A stretch of DNA of 64,000 bases from an uncultured Chloroflexia bacterium (GCA_963719145.1 CAVRAX010000001.1:71544-135543); one strand, 5' to 3'; shown: positions 2,737-29,995, counted from the stretch's first letter. Numbers and translations: made by a program. The notes: generated by a model from the sequence alone, not told the origin.

Positions 2737-4422
2737 CTAGCCCTCGCCGAGCATCGGGACTCGGACGCCGCGCTCCCGAGCGACCTCGACCGCCCGGTCG
2801 TATCCGGCGTCGACGTGACGGAGGACGCCCATCGCCGGGTCCGTCGTCAGGACCCGCTCGAGCTTCTGCGCAGCGAGGTCTGTGCCATCCGCGACGACGA
2901 CCATGCCGGCGTGCTGCGAGTACCCGATCCCGACGCCGCCGCCGTGGTGGATGCTGACCCAGGTCGCGCCGGCAGCGGTGTTGACGAGGGCGTTGAGGAG
3001 CGGCCAGTCGGCGACCGCATCGGACCCGTCGAGCATCGCCTCGGTCTCGCGGTTGGGCGAGGCCACGGAGCCCGAGTCCAGGTGGTCCCGGCCGATGACG
3101 ATCGGGGCAGCGACCTCGCCCGTTCGGACCAGCTCGTTGAACGCCAGGCCGGCCTTCGACCGCTCGCCGTAGCCGAGCCAGCAGATCCGGGCCGGCAGGC
3201 CCTGGAACGGGACCCTGGCCTCGGCCATCTCGATCCAGCGCCGCAGGCCCGCATCCTCCGGGAAGAGCTCGAGGATCGCCCGGTCGGTCCGGAGGATGTC
3301 CTCGGGATCGCCGCTCAGGGCGGCCCAGCGGAACGGCCCGCGGCCCTCGCAGAACTGTGGCCGGATGAAGGCCGGCACGAAGCCCGGGTAGTCGAAGGCG
3401 TCCTCGACGCCGGCCTCGACCGCCATCGCCCGGAGGTTGTTGCCATAGTCGAAGACGACCGCGCCGGCCCGCAGGAACGACAGCATCGCCCGGACGTGGG
3501 CGCCCATCGCCCGGATCGACCGCCGGATGTACTCCTCGGGCTGGCTCGCGCGCAGGAGTAGCGCGTCGCCGAGCGCGATCTCGTCGGGCACGTAGCCGCC
3601 CAGTGGGTCATGGGCGGAGGTCTGGTCGGTGACGACGTCGAACTCCTCGCCGGCGGCGGCCCAGGCCGGCTCGATCTCGGCGGCGTTGCCGACGAGGGCG
3701 ATGCTCCGAGCCTCGCCGGCGGCCGCCCATGCCCGGGCCGTTGCCAGCGCCTCCGCCGGGTCCGCGGTGATGGCCTCCACGTAGCCGATGTCGAGGCGGC
3801 GCCGGGCCCGCTGCTCGTCGACCTCGATCGCCAGGCAAACGCCCTCGTTCATCGTCACCGCGAGGGGCTGCGCGCCGCCCATGCCGCCGAGCCCGGCCGT
3901 CAGCGTGACCCGGCCGCGCAGTGTTCCGCCGAAGTGCTGCCGGGCCAGCTCGGCGAACGTCTCGTAGGTGCCCTGGAGGATGCCCTGGGTGCCGATGTAG
4001 ATCCACGACCCGGCGGTCATCTGGCCGTACATCATGAGGCCCCGCCGTTCGAGGTCGCGGAAGTACTCCCAGGTGGCCCACTTCGCCACGAGGTTCGAGT
4101 TGGCGATGAGGACGCGAGGGGCCCACCCATGGGTCTGGAGCACGCCGACCGGCTTGCCGCTCTGAACGAGCAGTGTCTCGTCGTCGCCGAGGCGGCGGAG
4201 CTCGCGGACGATCGCGTCGAACGCGTCCCAGCTGCGGGCCGCCCGCCCTGTGCCGCCATAGACGACCAGGTTGTCGGGGTCCTCCGCAACCTCGGGATCG
4301 AGGTTGTTCATGAGCATCCGGAGGACGGCTTCCTGCTGCCAGCCGCGACACGAGATCTCGGTGCCGCGGGGGGCGCGGACCGGCCGGGCGCCTGGGAGAG
4401 GCTGACGAGCCTCGGTCACCAC
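2737..4422 (-). CDS. hutU: Urocanate hydratase (urocanase)
   Basis: 561 aa with full-length similarity to HutU, including conserved blocks [15 protein letters not shown] and [13 protein letters not shown]. Confidence 0.95.
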
Positions 4423-19351: not shown

Positions 19352-20260
19352 TCAGTACGGCTCGTCCGGGAGGAGCGGCCGCAGGGCGAAGAAGTAGACG
19401 TTGCCGTCGGGACCGGAGAGGTCCAGACCGCTGAACCCTCCTTCGATCCCATCGAGTCCGAGCTTGTCGACCTCCGCCGCGGTCAGCGTCCGGACCGGGA
19501 GCGATGGTGCGCCAGGCTCCGAGTGCTGGACGAAGTCAGCGGGCGCAATCGAGGGCCAGGGCCAGTCCCTGGGCGGACCCTGCCAGTCCGGCGCCAGGAC
19601 GCCGCGCCAGCGATCCGGAGTCCAGAGCACCTCGCCGTCCACGACCGCGCCGTAGGCCCGGACCCTGTCGCCAAGCTCCGCCAGGGCCCCAAGGATCGGC
19701 GTGTCCGGGCCGTCCTCGCGATCCATGCCGAGGGCCATGACGCTCACCGTCCTGGTCTGCCTGGCGGCATTGATGGTGAAGATCGCGGTGGGCAGATCGG
19801 CCCCTGGCGCCGGGTAGGAGTCGCGGGCGACGCCGAGGCCGGCGTCGGCGATCGCGTAATGGAGGAAGACCTGGATCGCCACCTCGTCGAGGTGAGTCGT
19901 CTGGAACGGGACCATTCGCACGATGCCGTCCGCCGCCGGTGGTGGTGCCGCCGTGCCGTCTCGGAAGATGACCGTGCCGTCGCCGTAGAGGGTGAAGGTC
20001 GGCGCCTCGGTGGCGAAGAAGCCCATCGGCACGAATCCACCGCCTTCCTCGAAGCGAAACACGACGTCGGTGGATCCCATGGCATGGTCGATGTCGCCGT
20101 CCGTCCCCGTCGCGGGGCTGGGGCTCGGGCCGGACGTACCGCCGGGCAGCGGGCTGGTCGGGCCCGAGGCGTTGCAGGCGACGGTTGCGACCGTGGCGGC
20201 CAGCAACAGGAGGCCTCGTAGCCGGTCGGGCGCATCGAGGCGGGCGAGGAGGGTCTTCAT
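19352..20260 (-). CDS. Hypothetical lipoprotein
   Basis: 302 aa with a signal peptide and lipobox (TVACN). It has Pro/Gly-rich linkers. Confidence 0.6.
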   Translation of the reverse strand: MKTLLARLDAPDRLRGLLLLAATVATVACNASGPTSPLPGGTSGPSPSPATGTDGDIDHAMGSTDVVFRFEEGGGFVPMGFFATEAPTFTLYGDGTVIFRDGTAAPPPAADGIVRMVPFQTTHLDEVAIQVFLHYAIADAGLGVARDSYPAPGADLPTAIFTINAARQTRTVSVMALGMDREDGPDTPILGALAELGDRVRAYGAVVDGEVLWTPDRWRGVLAPDWQGPPRDWPWPSIAPADFVQHSEPGAPSLPVRTLTAAEVDKLGLDGIEGGFSGLDLSGPDGNVYFFALRPLLPDEPY

Positions 20261-20563
20261 GGGGCATCCGACGTCCGGCGCCGTCCGCCGGTTCCTCGGC
20301 CGCCGGCGTCAGTAGCAGGCGCACGGCCTGGCCGAGCTGCTCGTCGGGGTCCGGCAGGAGACGCGCCACCATCGAGTGCCAGAACGCGCCACGATCGATC
20401 GGCCGGACGGGTATCCTCGCGGAGAGGATTTTCCCGGGCCTACATGCCCGGGCGGAACCGAGCGCGTGCGAGCAGCCCCGCCGGCGACACCGTCTGGTCG
20501 CGGCTCGTCCCGCGTTTGCGGTCCCGATCTCGGTCGCGCGTCCGAGATGGAGGGAACGAGAGC

Positions 20564-20878
20564 GTGTACGAGGACCGCACGCTGTCCTGCCGCGACTGCG
20601 GCGAGGCATTCATCTTCTCGGCCGGCGAACAACGCTTCTTCGCGGAGAAGGGCCTCACCAATGACCCGCAGCGCTGCCTCGACTGCCGGGCGGCAGCGAA
20701 ACAGGCTCGCTCGGGCGCCGGTCCCCGGCAATACCATGCTGCCGTCTGCGGTGCCTGCGGGAATCAGGCCATGGTCCCATTTGCGCCGCGGACCGACCGC
20801 CCGGTCTATTGCAGCACCTGCTACGACAAGGTCCGGGCCGGCCTCATCGAACCGCCCGTTGCGCCCGCAGACGCCTGA
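20564..20878 (+). CDS. Zinc-ribbon domain protein (two CxxC pairs plus a second C-rich cluster)
   Basis: GTG start behind GGAGGG. Contains CRDCGEAFIFSAGEQRFFAEKGLTNDPQRCLDCR, then CGACGNQ...CSTC. Confidence 0.6.
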   Translation: MYEDRTLSCRDCGEAFIFSAGEQRFFAEKGLTNDPQRCLDCRAAAKQARSGAGPRQYHAAVCGACGNQAMVPFAPRTDRPVYCSTCYDKVRAGLIEPPVAPADA

Positions 20879-21079
20879 CCAGCATCTCGCGGACCGGGGC
20901 ACGGCCACGACGCGACCCGGCCCGGCGCCGCCGGCCGGCCCGCTTTGTTGGCGCCGTGGGCGACCGGCTTCGCCGGCGCCCGCCGCGGGCGACCGGCTTC
21001 GCCGGCGCCGTCCGGTCGCGTCCCCTGCGCGCCGTAGACTGTCCGGACCGCAGCAGGGCCGTCGCCCGAGGAGGATCGC

Positions 21080-21283
21080 GTGGGCGTCATCATCATCCGG
21101 GAGATGGTCGGCACGAGCCCGAGCTCGTGGAGCGATGCCGCTCGGCAGGCCGTCGCCACCGCGTCGCGGACGGTGCGCAACATCAGGACGGTCGAGGTCG
21201 TGCAGTCGACGGCCAGGGTCGAGGACGGCGAGATTGTCGAGTATCGCGTCGAGATCAAGATCGGTTTCGAGTACGAGGGCTGA
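21080..21283 (+). CDS. Dodecin (small flavin-binding protein)
   Basis: 67 aa (MVGTSPSSWSDAARQAVATASRTVRNIRTVEVVQSTARVEDGEIVEYRVEIKIGFEYEG) with full dodecin-family similarity. GTG start behind AGGAGG. Confidence 0.85.
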   Translation: MGVIIIREMVGTSPSSWSDAARQAVATASRTVRNIRTVEVVQSTARVEDGEIVEYRVEIKIGFEYEG

Positions 21284-21640
21284 CCGGGCCGACGGCCGAA
21301 ACCGGCGACCATTGGTCGACTCGTTGACCGCCGGACGAGCCCGGGGCCGGTCGCAGCTAATCGCCGGGTGAGCGTTTGCCGCCACCATGGCGGCATGCCC
21401 AGCCCTCGACCGGCCGCGGTCGCGCGCCAAGCCTCGACTCCCGACTCGAACCGGAGGGCGGAGCTTGAGGCTCGCGTTGACACGGCCCGCGCGCCGTCCG
21501 TAGAGTTCGCGCCGCCTGGGCCCCCCATTCGCGAGTCGGACCCGAACGTCGAACCCGACCGGCAGGCGCGGATGCCGGTTGGACCGGGCCGACCGGCGGA
21601 GCCCGCGCCCAACCACGCTCCTGGAGGCCCGCTCGGCTCG

Positions 21641-24600
21641 ATGCCCGAGTACCCGGTTCAGATCAGCAAGGTCCAGGCGCCACCCCTCCGCGACGAGACG
21701 CTCGAGCGGGTCCGCCTCCTCGAGTGGTTGCACGTCAAGGTCCATCGGCGGGTGGTCCTGGTGACCGCCGAGGCCGGCTACGGCAAGACGACCCTGCTGG
21801 CGGACTTCAGCCGGCGCAGCCGGGTTCGCGCGCTCTGGTTCCGCCTCGACCGCGGCGATCGAGACTGGGTCGGCTTCCTCGCCTATCTCGTGGCTGCGTT
21901 GAGGATCCACCTGCCGACGTTTGCGCCGGTCACCCAGTCCCTGCTTCGAGAGACCGGGGCGACGGCTCCACCGCGGAGCACGGTGCTCGACACCTTCATC
22001 CGAGAGCTGGGCGAGCTCCCTCCCGACCCAACGGCCCTCATACTCGACGACCTTCACGCGGTCGACGACTCGGTGGACGTCAAGATCATCCTGCGCGAGC
22101 TGCTCGCGCGAGCCCCGGAGCGCCTGACGTTCGTCTTCATCAGCCGAAGACCACCGCCCGTCCCGCTGGCCCGCTTGCGCGCCCTCGGCGAGGTCGCCGA
22201 GCTGCGCACGGCCGAGCTCCGGTTCGATCCGGGCGAGACTGAGCAGCTCTTCCGGGAGACCTATTCGCTTGCCCTGGAGCCATCGGTTGCGGCCGAGCTT
22301 TCACGGCGAACCGAGGGCTGGGCCGCGTCCCTGCAGCTCGTTCGGACCGCCATCCGCGACAGGAGCCAGAGTGAGATCCGCGCATTCGTGAGCTCCTTGA
22401 GCGGCGCCGAGGGCGACCTCTACGACTACCTGGCTGAAGAGGTCGTAGGCGAACTTGCGTCGGATCTCCAGCAATTCCTGATGAAGACGTCGCTTCTCGA
22501 CACCGTCGAGCCGGTGCTCGGAAGCGTCGCGGCAGGAACCTCGCCCGAAGCCACGCGCGCCGCGATCACCGAGGGGGAGCTCATCGGCCTGTTCAGCCGG
22601 ACAGGCCCGCACACTCGCGACCAGGTCCGCGCCCATCCTCTCGTCCGGGACTTCCTGCAGGCCCGCCTCCTTCGTTCGGTTGGCCGGGAGGCGGTCGTCG
22701 CGATCCACCACGCCGTCGCGGTGGCTGCCGAACCGATCGACTGGCGGATCTCCGGCCACCACTACGTCGCCGCCGGCAGCACGGACGACGCTCGACGCGT
22801 CCTTGCCGACGCCATCGAATCAATCCTCGCAACTGGCGAATACGCGGCGGCTGAGGAGCTCGCGACCACGCTACCCGAAGCGGCAACACCAGATCCAAAC
22901 GTCCTCGTCGTCTTGTCGCGGACCGCGCAGCAGCGGGGCGAATCGGAGGTGGGCCGTGCATTCGCAGAGGCGGCATTCGGGGTCGAACCCGCGAAGCCTG
23001 CCGTGGTGCTGACCCTCGTGACAGCCCGACTGTGGGCCGGAGACATCTCTGGGGCGCTGACCGCGCTTGAGGGTCTCGAAGGCGCTCCCGGCAGCGCAAG
23101 CATTGCCTTGATGGCGCGCTCAATCCGACTGATGATCGCGTGCTCGGTCGATGGAAACCTCTCTACCGCAGCAGGCGCGCTCGAGAGCCTGGGCGCCATG
23201 CTCCGTGACCAATCGCAGCTTCACTTCTTGGGCGTTGCTCTGACGAACCTCGCGTACATCAGGAAGGCACAAGGGCGGGCGCCTGAGGCTCTGTCAATCG
23301 CAACCGAGGCGATAGGCGATCTTGAGTCCACGTCCGGAGGCATCGAGCTTGTCTCAGCGCGACTCGTGCGCGGCTGGGCCCTCGCGCACCTCGGTGACCT
23401 CGATTCCGCGCGTGACGAGATCGCGATTGCGTCGATCGCTGCAACGCCAGCTCAGGCGATCGAAGTTGCCTGGGAGGCTTGTGAGGTCGAGTTGCTCTAT
23501 GGAGACCCGAATCGAGCGAGCGATTGGGTAGAACCATTTGATGCGGTCCCTGCCGGGAGCGATCACGGTGAGCAGATCGCCCTCGTCGCCATCCATACGG
23601 ACCTACTGCTGGGCCGCCACGAGAAGGCCGCCACGAGGATTCTGGAACTTGTGCCTGGAGCTCCGAGAACCACGGTCGCATTCGAAGTCCGCCGCCTCCT
23701 TGTTGGAGCGCTCGCCTATGTCCTCGGCGCAGTCGCGGAAGGCTCGACGAAGGCCACAGCGGCCGTGGAGCTGGCGACCCGACAAGGCGCCGACCTTTGG
23801 TCCAGAGTCGCATCGATCCTCGCTGCGGCCTCGGAGGGCCGCGCCATTTCGCCGTTGATCCTGAGATCCGCTGGCCGGGATCCGGCAATCATGTCGATTT
23901 GTGCCGACACGGTTGCGCTGAGGCTAGGGGCGCTTGAGCAACCCGCGCTCGAGGCTGTTCAGCAGGAGGCCTCAAAGCGCAAGGAGCGATGGCGGCCAGC
24001 GCTCAGGCGCGCTTTGGAAGATGAGAATGACCGCACCCAGTACGCTGCTGCCATATTGCTCGATCGCGTCGGTTCAGCCGAAGACGTGTCTCGGCTGCGG
24101 CGAGCCGCACGAAACCTTCGATCACACCCCGACTCCTCGACTCTTGGCCGAGGCCTCGCGCGCCGGCTAGCTCCGCGCGTCGAGATCGAGGACCTGGGGA
24201 GGGTTCAACTTCGGATAGGCGACCGCGTAGTGGATGGCTCGACCATGCGACGCAAGGTACTTGCGCTCCTCTGCTACCTGATCACACGTCCAGGACAGAG
24301 TTCAACCCGAGAGGAGGTGCTCGAGGCGCTTTGGCCATCGCTCGCCCCGTCAACAGCGCTGAATTCCCTGAACCAGACTGTCTACTTCCTGCGCCGGGTG
24401 TTCGAGCCCACGTTCTCCGAAGATATTACGGCCGGATACCTCGGCCAAGACGGCGAGACCGTTTGGCTGGACCAAGAGCTGTTGAGTGCCAAGAGTCAGC
24501 GCTGCCGAGACATGATCCGGACCATGCCCGGAACACCTCGCCCCGAGGACGTCCTGACCTTGGCTGAGCTCTATAGGGGGCGATTTGCGCTCGACTTCAT

Positions 24601-24886
24601 GTACGAAGAGTGGGCAGGCGGCTACCGAGACTCGCTGCACGCTTCATATCTGCGGGTCGTAGAGGCCTCGTTGCGCCTAGACACAGACACAGGGCACTAT
24701 GCCCGTGGAATCGCCGTGGCCGAACTTGCGGCGGAGGTCGAACCGGACTCCGAGGAACTCCAGGTCGCGCTCTTGCGCCTCTATCGGCTTGCTGGGTCCT
24801 TCGCGGCTGCAGCCGAGCAGTACGGACACTATTCGCAGACGCTTCGCGAGATCGGAGTCGAGCCACAGCCGTTCGGCTCGCTCTAG
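21641..24886 (+). CDS. Large transcriptional regulator: MalT-like STAND ATPase N-terminus, helical/TPR-like middle region, C-terminal SARP module (OmpR-type wHTH + BTAD)
   Basis: The N-terminus (MPEYPVQISKVQAPPLRDETLERVRLLEWL...VLVTAEAGYGKTTLLADF...WFRLDRGD) resembles the MalT N-terminus with a Walker A motif. The C-terminus has a winged helix (RVQLRIGDRVVDGS...RRKVLALLCYLITRPGQSSTREEVLEALWP...LNQTVYFLRRVFE) followed by a BTAD. The start was trimmed to the ATG at 21641. The track start at 21368 is an alternative. Confidence 0.8.
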   Translation: MPEYPVQISKVQAPPLRDETLERVRLLEWLHVKVHRRVVLVTAEAGYGKTTLLADFSRRSRVRALWFRLDRGDRDWVGFLAYLVAALRIHLPTFAPVTQSLLRETGATAPPRSTVLDTFIRELGELPPDPTALILDDLHAVDDSVDVKIILRELLARAPERLTFVFISRRPPPVPLARLRALGEVAELRTAELRFDPGETEQLFRETYSLALEPSVAAELSRRTEGWAASLQLVRTAIRDRSQSEIRAFVSSLSGAEGDLYDYLAEEVVGELASDLQQFLMKTSLLDTVEPVLGSVAAGTSPEATRAAITEGELIGLFSRTGPHTRDQVRAHPLVRDFLQARLLRSVGREAVVAIHHAVAVAAEPIDWRISGHHYVAAGSTDDARRVLADAIESILATGEYAAAEELATTLPEAATPDPNVLVVLSRTAQQRGESEVGRAFAEAAFGVEPAKPAVVLTLVTARLWAGDISGALTALEGLEGAPGSASIALMARSIRLMIACSVDGNLSTAAGALESLGAMLRDQSQLHFLGVALTNLAYIRKAQGRAPEALSIATEAIGDLESTSGGIELVSARLVRGWALAHLGDLDSARDEIAIASIAATPAQAIEVAWEACEVELLYGDPNRASDWVEPFDAVPAGSDHGEQIALVAIHTDLLLGRHEKAATRILELVPGAPRTTVAFEVRRLLVGALAYVLGAVAEGSTKATAAVELATRQGADLWSRVASILAAASEGRAISPLILRSAGRDPAIMSICADTVALRLGALEQPALEAVQQEASKRKERWRPALRRALEDENDRTQYAAAILLDRVGSAEDVSRLRRAARNLRSHPDSSTLGRGLARRLAPRVEIEDLGRVQLRIGDRVVDGSTMRRKVLALLCYLITRPGQSSTREEVLEALWPSLAPSTALNSLNQTVYFLRRVFEPTFSEDITAGYLGQDGETVWLDQELLSAKSQRCRDMIRTMPGTPRPEDVLTLAELYRGRFALDFMYEEWAGGYRDSLHASYLRVVEASLRLDTDTGHYARGIAVAELAAEVEPDSEELQVALLRLYRLAGSFAAAAEQYGHYSQTLREIGVEPQPFGSL

Positions 24887-24887
24887 A

Positions 24888-25921
24888 TGTGATTCATGAG
24901 GACGTTGTTGACAGGTGAGAGCCCTGTCCGTGGGATTTGGGGTGTCTGGCTCCAAACCACGGGAGGGCTCTCACGATGCATCGTACGGCGAAGCTGACGG
25001 TGTTCGGCAGGCGGCTGCTGGTCGAACGGATCGAGCTTGAGGCTTGGCCGATCGCCCATGCCGCGGCGATGACCGGCGTGAGCCGCCAGACGGCCACCAA
25101 GTGGGTCCGGCGGTACCGGGCCGAGGGCCTGACCGGTCTCGAGGATCGCAGCTCCCGGCCGCATCGCTCGCCCCGCAGGCTCACGCCGGAGCGGGTCGCG
25201 GCGATCCTCGCCGCCCGCCACGAGCTGGGGTACGGCCCGCATCGCCTGGCGCCGGTCGTCGGCAGCCCGCGCTCGACGATCGGTGACGTCCTGCGCCGTC
25301 ATGGCCTGTCCCGGCTACGTGACCGCGACCGGCCGTCGGGTGTCCCGATCCGCTATGTCCGAGAGCGACCGGGCGAGCTCCTCCACATCGACGTCAAGAA
25401 GCTGGGGCGGATCCCCGACGGTGGCGGCCATCGGTTCCGCGGCCGGGGCAACGGCACACCCAAGGCGCGGTCCGGCTACGACTACGTCCATCAGGCCATC
25501 GATGACATGAGCCGGGTGGCCTATGTCGACGTCTTCGCCGACGAGCGTGGTCCGACCTGCGCCGCGTTCCTGCGCGATGCCGCGGCGTGGTTTGCTCGGC
25601 AGGGTGTCCGGATCGAGCGGGTCATGACCGACAACGCCCGCAACTACACCGTTTCGCGTGACTTCCAGGCGGCCCTCAGCGACCTCGGAGCCCGCCACAA
25701 GCGGACCCGCTTCCACCGGCCGCAGACCAACGGCAAGAGCGAGCGCTTCAACCGGACCCTGCTCGACGAGTGGGCCTACACCCGCCCGTACACGTCCAAC
25801 AACGAGCGGTTGCTCGCCCTGCCAGACTTCGTCGATCACTACAACAACCACCGACCCCACACCGCGCTGAACGGGCTCACGCCGATGGCGGTCCTCGTCA
25901 ACAACGTGTCCGGGAATCACA
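24888..25921 (+). mobile_element. IS481-family insertion sequence (~1034 bp) with imperfect terminal IRs and 6-bp TCTAGA target-site duplications
   Basis: The left IR is TGTGATTCATGAGGACGTTGTTGACAGG. The reverse complement of the right IR is TGTGATTCCCGGACACGTTGTTGACGAGG. TCTAGA flanks both ends (24882-24887 and 25922-25927). The NCTAGN target preference and TGTG termini are typical of IS481. Confidence 0.85.
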
Positions 25922-25926
25922 TCTAG
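24976..25926 (+). CDS. IS481-family transposase (DDE, rve integrase core)
   Basis: Starts MHRTAKLTVFGRRLLVERIELEAWPIAHAAAMTGVSRQTATKWVRRYR (HTH), followed by the rve core (LHIDVKKLG...DNARNY...TNGKSERFNRTL). Preceded by GGGAGGG. Confidence 0.9.
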   Translation: MHRTAKLTVFGRRLLVERIELEAWPIAHAAAMTGVSRQTATKWVRRYRAEGLTGLEDRSSRPHRSPRRLTPERVAAILAARHELGYGPHRLAPVVGSPRSTIGDVLRRHGLSRLRDRDRPSGVPIRYVRERPGELLHIDVKKLGRIPDGGGHRFRGRGNGTPKARSGYDYVHQAIDDMSRVAYVDVFADERGPTCAAFLRDAAAWFARQGVRIERVMTDNARNYTVSRDFQAALSDLGARHKRTRFHRPQTNGKSERFNRTLLDEWAYTRPYTSNNERLLALPDFVDHYNNHRPHTALNGLTPMAVLVNNVSGNHI

Positions 25927-26092
25927 ATCTAGAGCCCGATAGGTACAGATGCGTATTGACCGGTTTAGTTTGGGATCCCTATAGTCCTGACACTTCGTAG
26001 TACTCACGTACTAGGGAGCTCAGCCTAAAACGCTCGGACGCGCTGAAGCCGCACCTGAAATGGGCACTTAGGGTGGGGCGGAGCGAGTAGTG

Positions 26093-26125
26093 CAACCGAC
26101 CGACCACGTGTCTGGTCGGTTTTCG
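26093..26125 (+). terminator. Intrinsic terminator-like hairpin with a T-run
   Basis: gaCCGACCAcgtgtcTGGTCGGttttcgcgtcttt. This is probably the original terminator of the regulator gene, displaced about 1.2 kb by the IS insertion. Confidence 0.5.
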
Positions 26126-26210
26126 CGTCTTTACGATGCGGAGGCCGCAAGGAGGAACGAGCGTGCAGCCGGAAAGCACCCTTAAGGGCTTCTAGGTCGA
26201 GGAGATCGGC

Positions 26211-26300
26211 ATGAAAGCCCGAATCGTCCGATTGGCGATCACCTTGAGCGCCATTGCCGCCACAGCACTCGCCGGAGGGGCCACCCTCAAGGGCTTCTAG
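26211..26300 (+). CDS. Tiny hydrophobic ORF (29 aa, MKARIVRLAITLSAIAATALAGGATLKGF), speculative
   Basis: ATG behind GAGGAG. A 10-aa ORF 15 nt upstream (GTG behind AAGGAGG) ends with the same TLKGF-stop, encoded by a repeated CACCCTYAAGGGCTTCTAG element. Coding status is unproven. Confidence 0.25.
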   Translation: MKARIVRLAITLSAIAATALAGGATLKGF

Positions 26301-26377
26301 TACGTCTTGGCCATTCGGTCGCCCCAGCAAATGGGCGTAGAGTTTCGGACCGAAGGTCGAGGTCGTACGAAGAGCAA

Positions 26378-27787
26378 GTGACCAGGTCGCTCAAGGCGTA
26401 TATCACCGGGCTCGTGGGAGCCGCAGCAATTGTGCTGTTGGCCACGAGCCTTGTGATTCCTGTTGACGCACGCATTGCGCTCCAGTTCGATGCTGACCCC
26501 GCGAACGCCTCGCGCCTAGAGCTTCTTGCGGGCGTCGCATTCTGGACGGTCGTCACCCTATTTGCGTCCGCACTACCTGTGCGCTTGACGGACGGCGTCC
26601 AGGTGGCTGTTTCGATTGCTCCCCTTATGGCGGCAACCGCGCTTGGGGGTCCGACAGCCGGGGCTTGGGTAGCCTTGCTTGGCACGACAGACATGCGCGA
26701 GGTCCGTGGCAAGGTAATTTGGTACGGCACGCTCACGAACCATGCGGCGATCGTGCTTCCGGTCATTCTCGGCGGCTGGGTGATGTCGAGCCTTCGCGGG
26801 CCATCCGGCAACCTCCTCCAGGAACTTGCGGCAATCCTTGCCGGGTCACTGGTCTACTTCGCCCTCAACCTGATCTTTGTGTCGGCCATCGTGGTGCTGC
26901 GCGGCGGTCGCACGATCCGAGAGTTCCTAACCAAGGCGGAAACCGCGAACATCTGGGTGAACCTCGTAACGCTTGCCCCGCTCGGTTGGCTCATGGCCAG
27001 GATGTACGAGACCGAGGGGGCCGGATGGTGGACCACGCTCCTCTTCGCCCTGCCCCTGTACACGACCCGGGTTGCGTACCACCGGTTCGTCGAGATGCGC
27101 GACATGTTCACGCAGACGATCGGAGCACTCGCGCGGGCCGTCGACAAGCGCGATCCGTTCACCGCGGAGCACAGCCAGAACGTCCGGATGATCAGCGTCG
27201 ACATCGGCCGCGAGATGCGGGTCAGCGCGGCCGAGCTGGAGGCCCTGGAGTGGGGCGGGCTCCTTCATGACGTCGGCAAGATCGGCGTTCCCGACAAGAT
27301 CCTCCTGAAGCAGGAGCGCCTGACGCGCGAGGAGCGGATGGTGATGAACGCCCACCCTGTACTGGGCGCCGAGATCATTCAACCGGTCAACCGCCTCGCC
27401 GCCGAGTTGCCGATCATTCGCCACCATCACGAGTGGTTCAACGGCTCCGGCTACCCGGACCGGCTGATGGGCGACGAGATCCCGAGGCTGGCCAGGATCC
27501 TGCATGTCGCCGATGCGTTCGAGGCGATGACGGCCGCTCGTCCGTATCGCATGACGCCGCTCACCAATGAGCAAGCCCTGTCCGAGCTCCGCAAGTTCGC
27601 CGGCATTCAGTTCGACCCTGTCGTGGTCGATGCGTTCGTTCGAACGCGTTGGGCAGACGACGTCCGCGATCCGGGCCGCACGAACGAGCTTCGACCGATC
27701 CCGCTTCTCGGCCAGCACGCGGCGCGGGCGACGCAGCCAGCCTACGACGGTCCGGCGCCCGGTTCCCCCGCCTCCGACCTAGCCTGA
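26378..27787 (+). CDS. HD-GYP domain c-di-GMP phosphodiesterase with an N-terminal multi-TM sensor domain
   Basis: About 7 TM helices, then HD (GLLHDVGKIGVPD), HHEWFNGSGYP (the GYP motif) and the remaining HD-GYP core. GTG start behind GAAGAG. Confidence 0.85.
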   Translation: MTRSLKAYITGLVGAAAIVLLATSLVIPVDARIALQFDADPANASRLELLAGVAFWTVVTLFASALPVRLTDGVQVAVSIAPLMAATALGGPTAGAWVALLGTTDMREVRGKVIWYGTLTNHAAIVLPVILGGWVMSSLRGPSGNLLQELAAILAGSLVYFALNLIFVSAIVVLRGGRTIREFLTKAETANIWVNLVTLAPLGWLMARMYETEGAGWWTTLLFALPLYTTRVAYHRFVEMRDMFTQTIGALARAVDKRDPFTAEHSQNVRMISVDIGREMRVSAAELEALEWGGLLHDVGKIGVPDKILLKQERLTREERMVMNAHPVLGAEIIQPVNRLAAELPIIRHHHEWFNGSGYPDRLMGDEIPRLARILHVADAFEAMTAARPYRMTPLTNEQALSELRKFAGIQFDPVVVDAFVRTRWADDVRDPGRTNELRPIPLLGQHAARATQPAYDGPAPGSPASDLA

Positions 27788-27925: not shown

Positions 27926-29995
27926 GTGCTGATCGGGGGTCTCGCGCTCGGCCTGATCCTGGGCCTCCTCGGCGGCGGGCGAATCGAACACCTCGCATCG
28001 ATTCGTTTCCGGCTGCTCCAGGCCACGTTCCTGGGACTCGTGATCCGGATCGCGACGCAGATCGCGATCGAGCAGGGCAATGCTCCGGCCGATGCCCTGC
28101 GGCTCCCGCTCTTCACGATCGCCTTCGTCCTCATCCTCGTCGGGTTGTGGGCCAACCGCGAGCAACCCGGCCTCAGCCTCGCGTTCGTCGGGGTTCTGCT
28201 GAACACGATCGTCATCACGATCAACAGCGGCTACATGCCGGTCTGGCAACCGGCCTACGAGGTCGCCGGGTTCGGGCCCGGGAACGACCTGGGCCCGCTC
28301 CACGTGATCGTCCCCGGCGTGGTCAGTGGTGACTTTCTTGTTCGTGCGGGACCGCTCGGGGACATCCTGCCGATCCCGCTTCCGCTCGTTCGAAACGTCG
28401 CGAGCCTGGGCGACGTCTTCCTCGGAATCGGCCTGGCGTTCTTCCTCTTCGCAACGACGATCAGGACGCCGGAGGAGCTCGATGAGGCAAGCCGCGAGGC
28501 GATCCGGCGCCGCCTCACCTCGATCGCCCCCGTGCGCGGCGCCGGCGTCGTGTCGACGACGGCGCTCGTGGCCCGTGGACTCGGGGCGACCACCACGCTC
28601 GAGAGGCCCGCGCTGTTGGGCGGGACTGCGGTTGGGGCGGAGACTGCGCTCGGGGGCGATTCGGCGCGTCGTGCCGTCGCGCTCGGTGCTCCAACGGCGC
28701 CGACGCCGCCATTGGCCTATTTCCCGGTCCCGGCGGTTCCGGCGGTACCGCCTCTCATCGAACGCGTCCGCCGCCACGCCTATGTGCGGCTCGCCCTCGA
28801 CGGCTCGTTCTCGGCCCTCTGGACCGGGCAGCTCGTGAGCCTGGTCGGCGACCGGCTTCACCAGGTCGCGCTGGCATTCGTCGTCCTGGATGCGACCGCT
28901 TCCCCGCTCGCGGTTGGTGCGGTCTTCTTCGTGGCTACGCTGCCGAACCTCATGTTCGGCCCGATCGCCGGCACGCTCGTCGACCGCTGGGATCACCGCG
29001 AGGTGATGATCGTGTCGGATCTGCTCAGAGCCGGCGTCGTTCTCCTGATCCCGGTCGCGGCCGTGACGAACCTGGCCCTCGTCTATCCGCTCGTCTTCCT
29101 CGTGACCACGATCTCGATCTTCTTCCGGCCGGCGAAGGTGGCGATTCTGCCGCGCCTCATCTCCAGCGACGATCTCGTCGCCGGTAACTCGGCGATGTGG
29201 GTGGCCGACACGTTCGCGGACATCGGCGGGTACGTCCTGGCCGGCCTGTTCGTCGCCGTCCTGGGCAGCCAGCTGCCGCTCGCCTTCTGGGCCGACGCGG
29301 TGACCTATATCGCGTCGGCGATCCTCATCGCCACGATCTCGGTCGCTCCGATGAAGCGAGTGGCGACCATGGCCGGCCGAGGTGAGGGCTTCCTCGCCGA
29401 GCTCGTCGAGGGCTGGCAATTCCTCCGGGGCGAGGCCGTCCTCCTCGCTAACACGATCCAGGCAACGGTCGGGCAATTCATGCTCGGCGTGTTCCTCGCC
29501 CTGACCCCGGTGTATGCCAAGGACGTCATCGATGCCGGCGCGCTCGACGCGAGCACGGCCTACTCCTTCCTCGAAGGCGCGATCGGTGCCGGGAACCTCA
29601 TTGGCGGCTTCGCGATCGGGCTCCTCGGCTCGAGGATGGCCCTCGGCAGGATGGTCATCTTCGGCTACGTCTGGACGGGGGCGTGCGTCGCGGCCCTCGC
29701 CTTCACCAGCAACCTCGGGCTCGCGATCGGGCTCTCGTTCGGCGCCGGCGTCGGGAACCTCGCCTTCGTCATTCCGAGCCAGACGCTCGTCCAGCGCCGG
29801 ACGCCCGAGGCGCTCATGGGTCGCCTGCTCGGACTCCGCTTCTCGTTGGTCTACGGCTCGATGACCGTGGCGATGGGCGTCGCCGGCGTCCTCGGTGAGA
29901 TCTTCGGCGCGGCGCCGGTCCTGGGTGCCTTCGGGCTGGTCACGGTCGCCGCGGGCCTGGCCGGGCTGTTGTTCCCGGCCGTCCGAGATGCGTGA
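27926..29995 (+). CDS. Fusion (or two unresolved in-frame genes): N-terminal DUF5317-like membrane domain plus C-terminal MFS transporter
   Basis: Residues 1-200 are a small polytopic domain. A ~90 aa linker is followed by an MFS region beginning LALDGSFSALWTGQLVSLVGDRLHQVALAFVVLD, with 12 TM segments. No stop codon lies between the two parts. Confidence 0.7.
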   Translation: MLIGGLALGLILGLLGGGRIEHLASIRFRLLQATFLGLVIRIATQIAIEQGNAPADALRLPLFTIAFVLILVGLWANREQPGLSLAFVGVLLNTIVITINSGYMPVWQPAYEVAGFGPGNDLGPLHVIVPGVVSGDFLVRAGPLGDILPIPLPLVRNVASLGDVFLGIGLAFFLFATTIRTPEELDEASREAIRRRLTSIAPVRGAGVVSTTALVARGLGATTTLERPALLGGTAVGAETALGGDSARRAVALGAPTAPTPPLAYFPVPAVPAVPPLIERVRRHAYVRLALDGSFSALWTGQLVSLVGDRLHQVALAFVVLDATASPLAVGAVFFVATLPNLMFGPIAGTLVDRWDHREVMIVSDLLRAGVVLLIPVAAVTNLALVYPLVFLVTTISIFFRPAKVAILPRLISSDDLVAGNSAMWVADTFADIGGYVLAGLFVAVLGSQLPLAFWADAVTYIASAILIATISVAPMKRVATMAGRGEGFLAELVEGWQFLRGEAVLLANTIQATVGQFMLGVFLALTPVYAKDVIDAGALDASTAYSFLEGAIGAGNLIGGFAIGLLGSRMALGRMVIFGYVWTGACVAALAFTSNLGLAIGLSFGAGVGNLAFVIPSQTLVQRRTPEALMGRLLGLRFSLVYGSMTVAMGVAGVLGEIFGAAPVLGAFGLVTVAAGLAGLLFPAVRDA

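Follow-up and report, generated by a model that had tools for sequence, protein, structure and literature searches.

An insertion sequence (IS) that lies exactly on the stop codon of a regulatory gene raises the question of whether the gene, or its connection with what follows it, has been changed by the insertion. Such a junction is found in a 64,000-nucleotide stretch of DNA from an uncultured Chloroflexia bacterium (GCA_963719145.1, CAVRAX010000001.1:71544-135543), hereafter called the window. Here, the gene of a large regulator, which joins an ATPase domain to a C-terminal DNA-binding module of the SARP (Streptomyces antibiotic regulatory protein) type, is followed by an IS481-family element and then by a hairpin with a T tract and the gene of an HD-GYP protein. 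The first-pass annotation of this locus took the hairpin to be the terminator of the regulator gene, displaced by the insertion. Based on the results below, we consider it likely that three separate things stand side by side at this locus, namely an intact regulator gene, an IS481-family element and a transcription unit controlled by a riboswitch. Coordinates are those of the window; the genes and RNA elements described, as well as the IS, are read on the plus strand.

Domain Organization of the Regulator

The open reading frame (ORF) of the regulator occupies 21368-24886 and comprises 1172 aa in full. The ATG at 21641 is the likely start, which gives a gene at 21641-24886 and a protein of 1081 aa, in agreement with the approximately 1080 aa claimed earlier; an identical 1081-aa protein (P0001) is present in a public collection. 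Based on Pfam and NCBIfam annotations, sequence searches of the PDB (8bob and 8hvr), an AlphaFold (AF2) model compared using Foldseek, and more than 1500 homologs, the protein was divided into a MalT-clade STAND NTPase (residues ~1-410), a TPR-like helical sensor (~410-840) and a SARP module consisting of a winged helix (~845-945) and a BTAD domain (~950-1075).

The N-terminal sequence MPEYPVQISKVQAPPLRDE is MalT-like and nearly invariant among the homologs. It is followed by Walker A (AEAGYGKTTLL, of which GYGKTTLL had been read in the first-pass annotation) and Walker B (ALILDD) motifs, and Pfam placed AAA_16/AAA_22 at 108-252 in the numbering of the 1172-aa ORF. In the PDB search, residues 9-413 matched the nucleotide-binding oligomerization domain (NOD) of MalT (8bob, E 2.5e-35). 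Homologs of the regulator carry the Pfam domain WHD_MalT, and no NB-ARC match was found in the regulator by Pfam. The NCBIfam matches to MalT and to AfsR were both partial; with the MalT equivalog model NF003420, the regulator was aligned at positions 5-437 and scored 196 bits against a cut-off of 537.

For the C-terminal part, an OmpR-type winged helix followed by BTAD, which is the composition of a SARP module, was found. BTAD was recognized at 1067-1168 of the 1172-aa ORF with 39.5 bits (cut-off 22.1), and Trans_reg_C was recognized at its cut-off, so that the domain models support the C-terminal assignment made earlier. Residues 857-1077 matched the SARP construct of AfsR (8hvr, E 2.7e-8), with both domains covered. 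In the AF2 model, residues 845-1075 form a beta-sheet, a helix-turn-helix and a wing in the OmpR-type pattern, and then an all-helical BTAD. No GerE/LuxR match was detected by Pfam, the C-terminus being Trans_reg_C plus BTAD. As for the middle part, weak TPR, TPR_MalT and HEAT matches were obtained with Pfam, and the AF2 model (mean predicted local distance difference test, pLDDT, 76.8) contains helical repeats at ~350-840 with high confidence (helices 333-825 at pLDDT ~85-95). With Foldseek, the whole model gave the MalT NOD as its top match, ahead of the STAND-TPR protein 6mfv and TPR superhelices. SARP structures were absent from the match list, which was dominated by TPR proteins; hence, the SARP assignment rests on hidden Markov model (HMM) matches, sequence matches and the secondary structure.

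The domain order ATPase, helical sensor, winged helix and BTAD is thus as described in the first-pass annotation and opposite to that of AfsR-type SARPs. To call it an "inverted AfsR" would nevertheless be misleading: since the NTPase belongs to the MalT clade (WHD_MalT in homologs, no NB-ARC match), the regulator is not a reversed AfsR, and a permutation of AfsR was rejected. The layout is the normal order of MalT, with a SARP output in place of a helix-turn-helix of the LuxR type. The protein has an N-terminal MalT-type NOD and a helical-repeat sensor between the NOD and the output; it lacks the C-terminal LuxR-type helix-turn-helix, and its SARP module is found not at the N-terminus but at ~845-1075 of 1081 residues.

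By analogy with MalT and AfsR, we suggest the following mode of action. Some ligand would bind to the sensor, with ATP bound too. The ligand and ATP together would then release autoinhibition and drive oligomerization. Finally, the SARP modules of the oligomer would be positioned on repeated DNA sites, and RNA polymerase would be recruited.

A promoter-like site of the regulator gene (TTGACA-18-TAGAGT, 21477-21506) was found by a consensus scan and is conserved in orthologs, upstream of which a TTGACAC...GTCCGTATCG block is kept. The 5′ leader is structured and has a conserved hairpin, CCGGTCGG-N6-CCGACCGG (21540-21575), before the GGAGG ribosome-binding site. A further conserved motif, CGCAGCTAATCG-N4-GGTGAGCG ... 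CACCATG ... ATGCC, is located ~250 nt upstream of the regulator start (21360-21420) and also occurs in the orthologous loci L010, L033, L082 and others, around positions 3700-3800. A small hairpin surrounds its CACCAT at 21360-21420, with compensatory stem changes (CCCGC/GCGGG, CTGCC/GGCAG, CCGCC/GGCGG). The third-position G+C content of the regulator gene is 0.76 vs. 0.80-0.93 in its neighbors.

The IS481-Family Element

The element at 24888-25921 is 1034 bp long. Its left and right inverted repeats (24888-24912 and 25897-25921) are imperfect, with 20 of the 25 nt of the arms identical (21/30 over the first 30 nt) and TGTGATTC at both ends. The transposase gene (24976-25926; ATG 24976) encodes 316 aa and ends with the TAG at 25924-25926, within the right target repeat. 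The protein matched the NCBIfam model of the IS481 family (NF033577) with 334.5 bits at a cut-off of 224, as well as LZ_Tnp_IS481, rve and rve_3 of Pfam, which bears out the family assignment given in the first-pass annotation. Relatives of the transposase at 85-92% identity are numerous and all 316 aa long. Most of them are located on contigs of ~1-1.7 kb, as expected of a repeated element, and one is annotated as Candidatus Limnocylindrales, an order of Chloroflexota.

The left target repeat, TCTAGA (24882-24887), holds the TAG stop codon of the regulator (24884-24886). On the right, the second TCTAGA (25922-25927) is followed by another, native TCTAGA (25928-25933), both repeats being read directly from the sequence. 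Removal of the element and one repeat yields the empty site TCTAGATCTAGA. This reconstruction is the one proposed earlier; the palindrome, in fact, extends to 16 bp (GCTCTAGATCTAGAGC) and not 12. TCTAGA occurs in the window only at the IS junction. In the window (70% G+C), the tetramer CTAG was counted 30 times, where a second-order model predicts 60; roughly one in four of the sites counted falls on the stop codon of a plausible ORF.

Four other copies of the element, L085-L088, have identical termini, with CTAG always one base from each end. The left and right flanks are TCTAGA and TCTAGA in the window, CCTAGG and CCTAGA in L085, ACTAGC and CCTAGT in L086, TCTAGG and CCTAGG in L087, and CCTAGC and GCTAGA in L088. 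In all five copies, the transposase stop codon is the TAG of the right-hand CTAG. Neighboring genes also terminate in the flanking CTAG in L085 (on both sides), L086 and L087. Both uses of the flanking TAG have a precedent in the IS481 family: in ISRe46/TnRErm46 of Rhodococcus equi, which targets NCTAGN/CTAG, the transposase stop is supplied by the right-flank TAG, and the left-flank TAG can end a target gene that is not interrupted (PMC6794481). The insertion exactly on the stop codon, to which the first-pass annotation drew attention, is therefore correct as to the position and nothing special as to the choice of site, since the CTAG target preference predicts it (PMC6794481).

For comparison, 84 orthologous loci were used, L085-L088 being other copies of the IS. 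No transposase match was found in any of the 84 loci, and no IS was present past the regulator stop in the 70 loci with readable sequence beyond it. The IS-free junctions of L001, L002, L004 and L089 were read directly, and in each the regulator has the C-terminal end that it has in the window (...PQP[FY]xxL, then the stop). The regulator of the window is therefore intact, as the first-pass annotation had it. In L089, which at 75% identity is the nearest of the orthologs whose 3′ end is available, the stop codon is TGA and TCTAGA is absent, so the palindrome GCTCTAGATCTAGAGC is specific to the lineage of the window. We suggest that the IS inserted into the CTAG holding the TAG of the regulator gene and that duplication of the target left the stop codon and the protein unchanged, while the right-hand CTAG would supply the transposase with its own stop. 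The behavior of the element is ordinary for the family and already published, and nothing new comes from it.

The Probable Riboswitch Unit Downstream of the IS

The region between the regulator stop and the HD-GYP gene was aligned in 58 distinct sequences. A profile of this region detected the conserved block directly past the regulator stop in 66 of 66 loci with at least 100 nt beyond the stop and in two of the three loci with 60-99 nt. Full-length matches had E values of 1e-47 to 1e-159, even where the regulators were only 42-45% identical. In 70 IS-free loci, the block starts 3-120 nt past the regulator stop, with no terminator between.

The block begins with a promoter (25938-25985) recognized by a consensus scan and the alignment. 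It includes the box GATAGGTA (25938-25945), a -35 hexamer TTGACC (25956-25961), a variable 18-nt spacer and a -10 hexamer TATAGT (25980-25985); its conserved positions are invariant or nearly so in the 58 orthologous intergenic regions. The box stands ~11 nt upstream of the -35 hexamer, and no second copy of it was found in the 64-kb window. The promoter is followed by a leader hairpin, CTTCgTAGTAC-N4-GTACTAGGgAG (25993-26018), which was found in the alignment and forms in the minimum free energy (MFE) fold. Its GTAC..GTAC is invariant, and 5 of 11 pairs have changes on both sides; the TAGTAC-N4-GTACTA core often encloses a UUCG loop. This hairpin could stabilize the 5′ end of the RNA or could act as an operator palindrome at the DNA level.

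Further downstream, a full-length cyclic di-GMP (c-di-GMP)-II riboswitch aptamer (Rfam RF01786) was identified at 26027-26110 with 65.4 bits at a gathering score of 53.5. RF01786 was also found 3′ of the regulator gene in L001, L002 and L004, at 69-72 bits. Helix P3 has compensatory changes in five of eight pairs, and the pseudoknot is invariant. The terminator stem-loop with its T tract (26094-26125), revealed by folding and alignment, represents the expression platform of this riboswitch: it takes its 5′ arm, AACCGACCGAC, from the 3′ part of the aptamer, and its stem is 99.5% paired, invariant in 58/58 sequences and present in the ligand-free MFE fold. A simple terminator scan of 21000-27000 found none, because of the bulge in this terminator and the shortness of its T run. 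The T tract also takes part in a second hairpin (26122-26142, from the alignment), in which it is paired with CACGGAGG just 5′ of the Shine-Dalgarno sequence (AGGAGG) of a micro-ORF. This hairpin is 98.5% paired, with changes on both sides in five of seven pairs, and may couple read-through to translation initiation.

The hairpin is the same structure (26093-26125) that had been taken for the regulator's own terminator, the IS being supposed to have uncoupled the gene from it and from the downstream neighbors, with regulatory consequences. It is true that in none of the orthologs was a terminator-like structure found on the way from the regulator stop to the riboswitch terminator, so that transcripts reading through from the regulator would end at this hairpin, and the IS adds 1 kb to their path. 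However, the 5′ arm of the hairpin is a conserved part of the c-di-GMP-II aptamer, the hairpin shares its conservation with the aptamer and not with the 3′ end of the regulator gene, and an invariant -35/-10 promoter stands between the stop codon and the aptamer in 58/58 sequences. In the window, this promoter (TTGACC at 25956, TATAGT at 25980) lies between the IS and the aptamer. Because the riboswitch has its own promoter 3′ of the IS, the insertion did not part the regulator from its own terminator, and the earlier explanation, which we now regard as highly improbable, has to be given up in favor of a riboswitch terminator stem.

A second possibility is that the IS matters in another way, either by parting the regulator from a cis-linked promoter or because transcription of the transposase gene feeds the riboswitch operon and alters HD-GYP expression. 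IS481 affects neighboring genes in Bordetella. In the window, the transposase is read towards the operon and its ORF reaches the very end of the element; moreover, the regulator and the operon are adjacent in 70/70 loci extending beyond the stop. On the other hand, the insertion hit an 11-nt spacer that is not conserved, 16 nt upstream of the GATAGGTA box, and left the conserved block and all its elements whole. Read-through, if any, would run into the riboswitch terminator all the same, no outward-facing promoter-like site was found in the IS by the consensus scan, and a diffusible regulator needs no adjacency. An effect of this kind appears unlikely to us, and the insertion was most likely neutral or nearly so.

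It may also be asked whether the regulator directly activates the riboswitch promoter through the box GATAGGTA ... CGTA beside the -35 hexamer, which would unite everything from the regulator to the HD-GYP enzyme in one module. In favor of this, the box does not vary among 58 orthologs, occurs once in the window and is placed where an upstream activator could sit; TAGGTA and TGCGTA are 10 nt apart, and the regulator and the operon are strictly adjacent. But this adjacency belongs to a vertically inherited synteny block that also includes dnaB and is therefore not independent evidence. SARP targets are described as direct repeats with an 11-nt periodicity, the 3′ repeat being 8 bp from the -10 hexamer, combined with a weak -35 (PMC10936776), whereas the riboswitch promoter has near-consensus hexamers and lacks this repeat geometry. 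Because its spacer, in which the promoter-proximal SARP repeat would be expected, is not conserved, we do not claim that the regulator acts there; direct activation seems doubtful, albeit conceivable.

We return to a riboswitch unit that is separate from both the regulator gene and the IS. Downstream of the IS, this unit would comprise the promoter, the leader hairpin, the riboswitch, two micro-ORFs, a MASE9-HD-GYP phosphodiesterase gene and DUF5317/MFS (major facilitator superfamily). Since the aptamer and the terminator share nucleotides, we infer an ON switch. The ligand-bound aptamer and the terminator would be mutually exclusive, and high c-di-GMP would lead to read-through and more phosphodiesterase, after which the c-di-GMP level would fall.

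Micro-ORFs and Downstream Genes

The first micro-ORF (26163-26195) has 10 codons (MQPESTLKGF), is preceded by AGGAGG and is present in every dereplicated ortholog, following the pattern [VM]-x-P-[ED]-x-x-x-K-x-[FWY] with a stop codon directly after it. The second, a 29-aa ORF (26211-26300) found in all dereplicated orthologs, encodes MKARIVRLAITLSAIAATALAGGATLKGF, a hydrophobic helix with a tail resembling the end of the first micro-ORF. Its pattern is M-[KR]-x-R, a hydrophobic helix and A-[LIV]-A-G-G-A-[ST]-[LIV]-[KR]-G-F before the stop. As judged by eye, without a count, the differences between the window and L001 in this ORF are mostly in third codon positions. Among loci whose regulators are at least 50% identical, the last four residues of both micro-ORFs change together (LKGF, LKGW, LKGY, LKSF, LKPF), and in L056 the heptapeptide TSVTKGF occurs three times in the first micro-ORF. 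No NCBIfam match was obtained for the 29-aa peptides or for the DUF5317 segment. An explanation of the micro-ORFs by RNA structure only was rejected: the palindrome CCCTTAAGGG is absent where the peptides end with KPW or KAW, and the peptide pattern persists.

The syntenic HD-GYP gene (26378-27787) encodes a c-di-GMP phosphodiesterase with MASE9, HD_5 and HD matches in Pfam and intact HD297, HHE350 and GYP358 motifs; the MASE9-HD-GYP architecture has been described before. Directly 3′ of it, DUF5317 and an MFS_3 transporter form one 689-aa ORF (27926-29995), and the pair is syntenic in the orthologs. DUF5317/MFS probably belong to the riboswitch-controlled unit.

The co-varying tetrapeptides and the triple heptapeptide of L056 prompt the idea that the regulator, the riboswitch and the two micro-ORFs form one signaling circuit based on a peptide and c-di-GMP. 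In the 29-aa product, a helix that resembles a signal or an anchor precedes ...AGGA-[ST]-L-K-G-F, the shorter micro-ORF has the same final residues, and one or both could yield a short peptide with a K-G-aromatic C-terminus. The receptor of such a peptide might be the TPR-like sensor of the regulator, by analogy with the RRNPP receptors of Phr-type peptides, or else the membrane domain (MASE9) of the HD-GYP enzyme, while c-di-GMP would gate peptide production via the riboswitch. We consider such a circuit to be very speculative and give it little chance of being correct.

Regulator Family and Synteny

More than 1500 full-length homologs of the regulator were found (E at most 1e-5, 90% clustering). 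Those that bear an organism name are Chloroflexota metagenome-assembled genomes, and the automatic names of the proteins include "BTAD domain-containing putative transcriptional regulator" and "MalT/DNA-binding SARP". The C-terminal 242 residues were searched against 1.84 billion representatives of 50% identity clusters; 241 representatives were obtained at E values of at most 1e-30, and in each of the best 150 the SARP match is C-terminal. A scan of a genome collection gave only relatives at 59-72% identity.

Across the 84 loci, the order dnaB - unknown ORF - zf_Tbcl - regulator - riboswitch - HD-GYP - DUF5317 - MFS recurs, and the window has the same order. Identities are 75-95% for DnaB, 40-79% for the regulator and 41-89% for HD-GYP, the lowest HD-GYP values being those of genes cut by contig ends; the regulator evolves faster than DnaB or HD-GYP across the same loci. 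The segment with the unknown ORF and zf_Tbcl (19352-20878 in the window) is inverted relative to the window in some loci, the comparison including L001, L002, L005-L009 and L029. L003 (DATIUS010000317.1), which has the same synteny (DnaB 89%, regulator 65%), was deposited as Candidatus Sulfomarinibacteraceae (Acidobacteriota). This label may be a binning error, the other named relatives all being Chloroflexota. As judged from these sequence comparisons, the regulator is the local ortholog of a large family whose members, as far as they could be placed on contigs, occupy one chromosomal locus (dnaB ... regulator ... HD-GYP; 88 loci fetched) in a Chloroflexota lineage.

In the literature, all SARP classes (small, medium, large and SARP-LAL) have the SARP module at the N-terminus according to a 2024 review (PMC10972967), and only N-terminal modules appear in the 2024 cryo-EM paper on AfsR (PMC10936776) and in a 2026 preprint. 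Our literature search for a class with a C-terminal SARP module or a MalT-SARP fusion found none. As far as can be told, the ATPase-sensor-SARP architecture is real, abundant in databases and unstudied.

Weighing of the Evidence and Significance

Several points weigh against the view that an intact regulator, an ordinary IS and an independent riboswitch unit are simply neighbors here, or against the parts assigned to them. Concerning the regulator, Trans_reg_C (961-1015 of the 1172-aa ORF) scored 26.2 bits, which is exactly the cut-off, and the NOD was modeled by AF2 with low confidence. Its ligand, its regulon and even the direction in which it regulates are matters of inference. In addition, no SARP-type direct repeats were seen at the riboswitch promoter, the sole candidate examined, where the spacer is variable and the -35 hexamer (TTGACC) is good. 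The direction of the riboswitch is also deduced from the overlapping helices only. Concerning the IS, an effect, if there is one, could be exerted through the loss of read-through from the regulator gene or through read-through from the transposase gene into the leader. The 6-bp target duplication is a further point. The ends described in the first-pass annotation recur in the four other copies, but the flanks of L085-L088 share CTAG and not the full hexamer (4 to 5 of 6 positions). The target repeat could thus be 4 bp with a 1036-bp element instead of 6 bp with a 1034-bp element. Sharing of CTAG only fits either a 4-bp repeat or chimeric joins in the metagenomes, and the reconstructed empty site is identical for both repeat lengths.

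SARP regulators have been studied almost only in actinomycetes, and always with the DNA-binding module at the N-terminus. The present family uses this module as the C-terminal output of a MalT-type switch, which widens its known use. It is conserved beside housekeeping genes in a major lineage of Chloroflexota from soil and fresh water, and it provides a natural test for gating of the SARP module from its opposite end. As for the IS, it illustrates neatly how TAG stop codons receive IS481 elements that target CTAG without damage to the gene. Finally, the "terminator" 3′ of the gene is here the expression platform of a riboswitch, and annotation that ignores RNA families will misassign such structures.

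Comparison with Known Systems

The IS resembles ISRe46/TnRErm46 in its IS481-family DDE transposase, terminal inverted repeats beginning with TGT, CTAG target and TAG stops taken from the flanks. It differs in being another element of 1034 bp, without cargo, in Chloroflexota (Limnocylindria-like) hosts.

Riboswitches of the c-di-GMP-II class have been reported with genes of c-di-GMP synthesis and breakdown. Like them, the riboswitch of the window has a full-length aptamer, covariation in P3 and an invariant pseudoknot, and it stands upstream of a c-di-GMP turnover gene. In contrast to those of Clostridia, it is found in a Chloroflexota host with 70% G+C, and two conserved micro-ORFs precede the HD-GYP gene.

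As for the regulator, it shares with MalT, the activator of the E. coli maltose regulon, an NOD with Walker A/B motifs and a MalT-type winged helix, a helical-repeat sensor and a C-terminal DNA-binding output, and MalT (8bob) is the best sequence and fold match for its N-terminal 410 residues. Unlike MalT, which ends with a LuxR-type helix-turn-helix, it has an OmpR-type winged helix and BTAD as the output, and it scores below the MalT equivalog cut-off (196 vs. 537 bits). With AfsR and the other "large" SARPs of Streptomyces, it shares the joining of a SARP module to a STAND NTPase and to TPR-type repeats within a single chain of ~1000 aa. However, the SARP module is C-terminal in the regulator and N-terminal in AfsR, the NTPase is of the MalT clade and not NB-ARC, and the gene is located in Chloroflexota beside housekeeping genes, outside any biosynthetic gene cluster.

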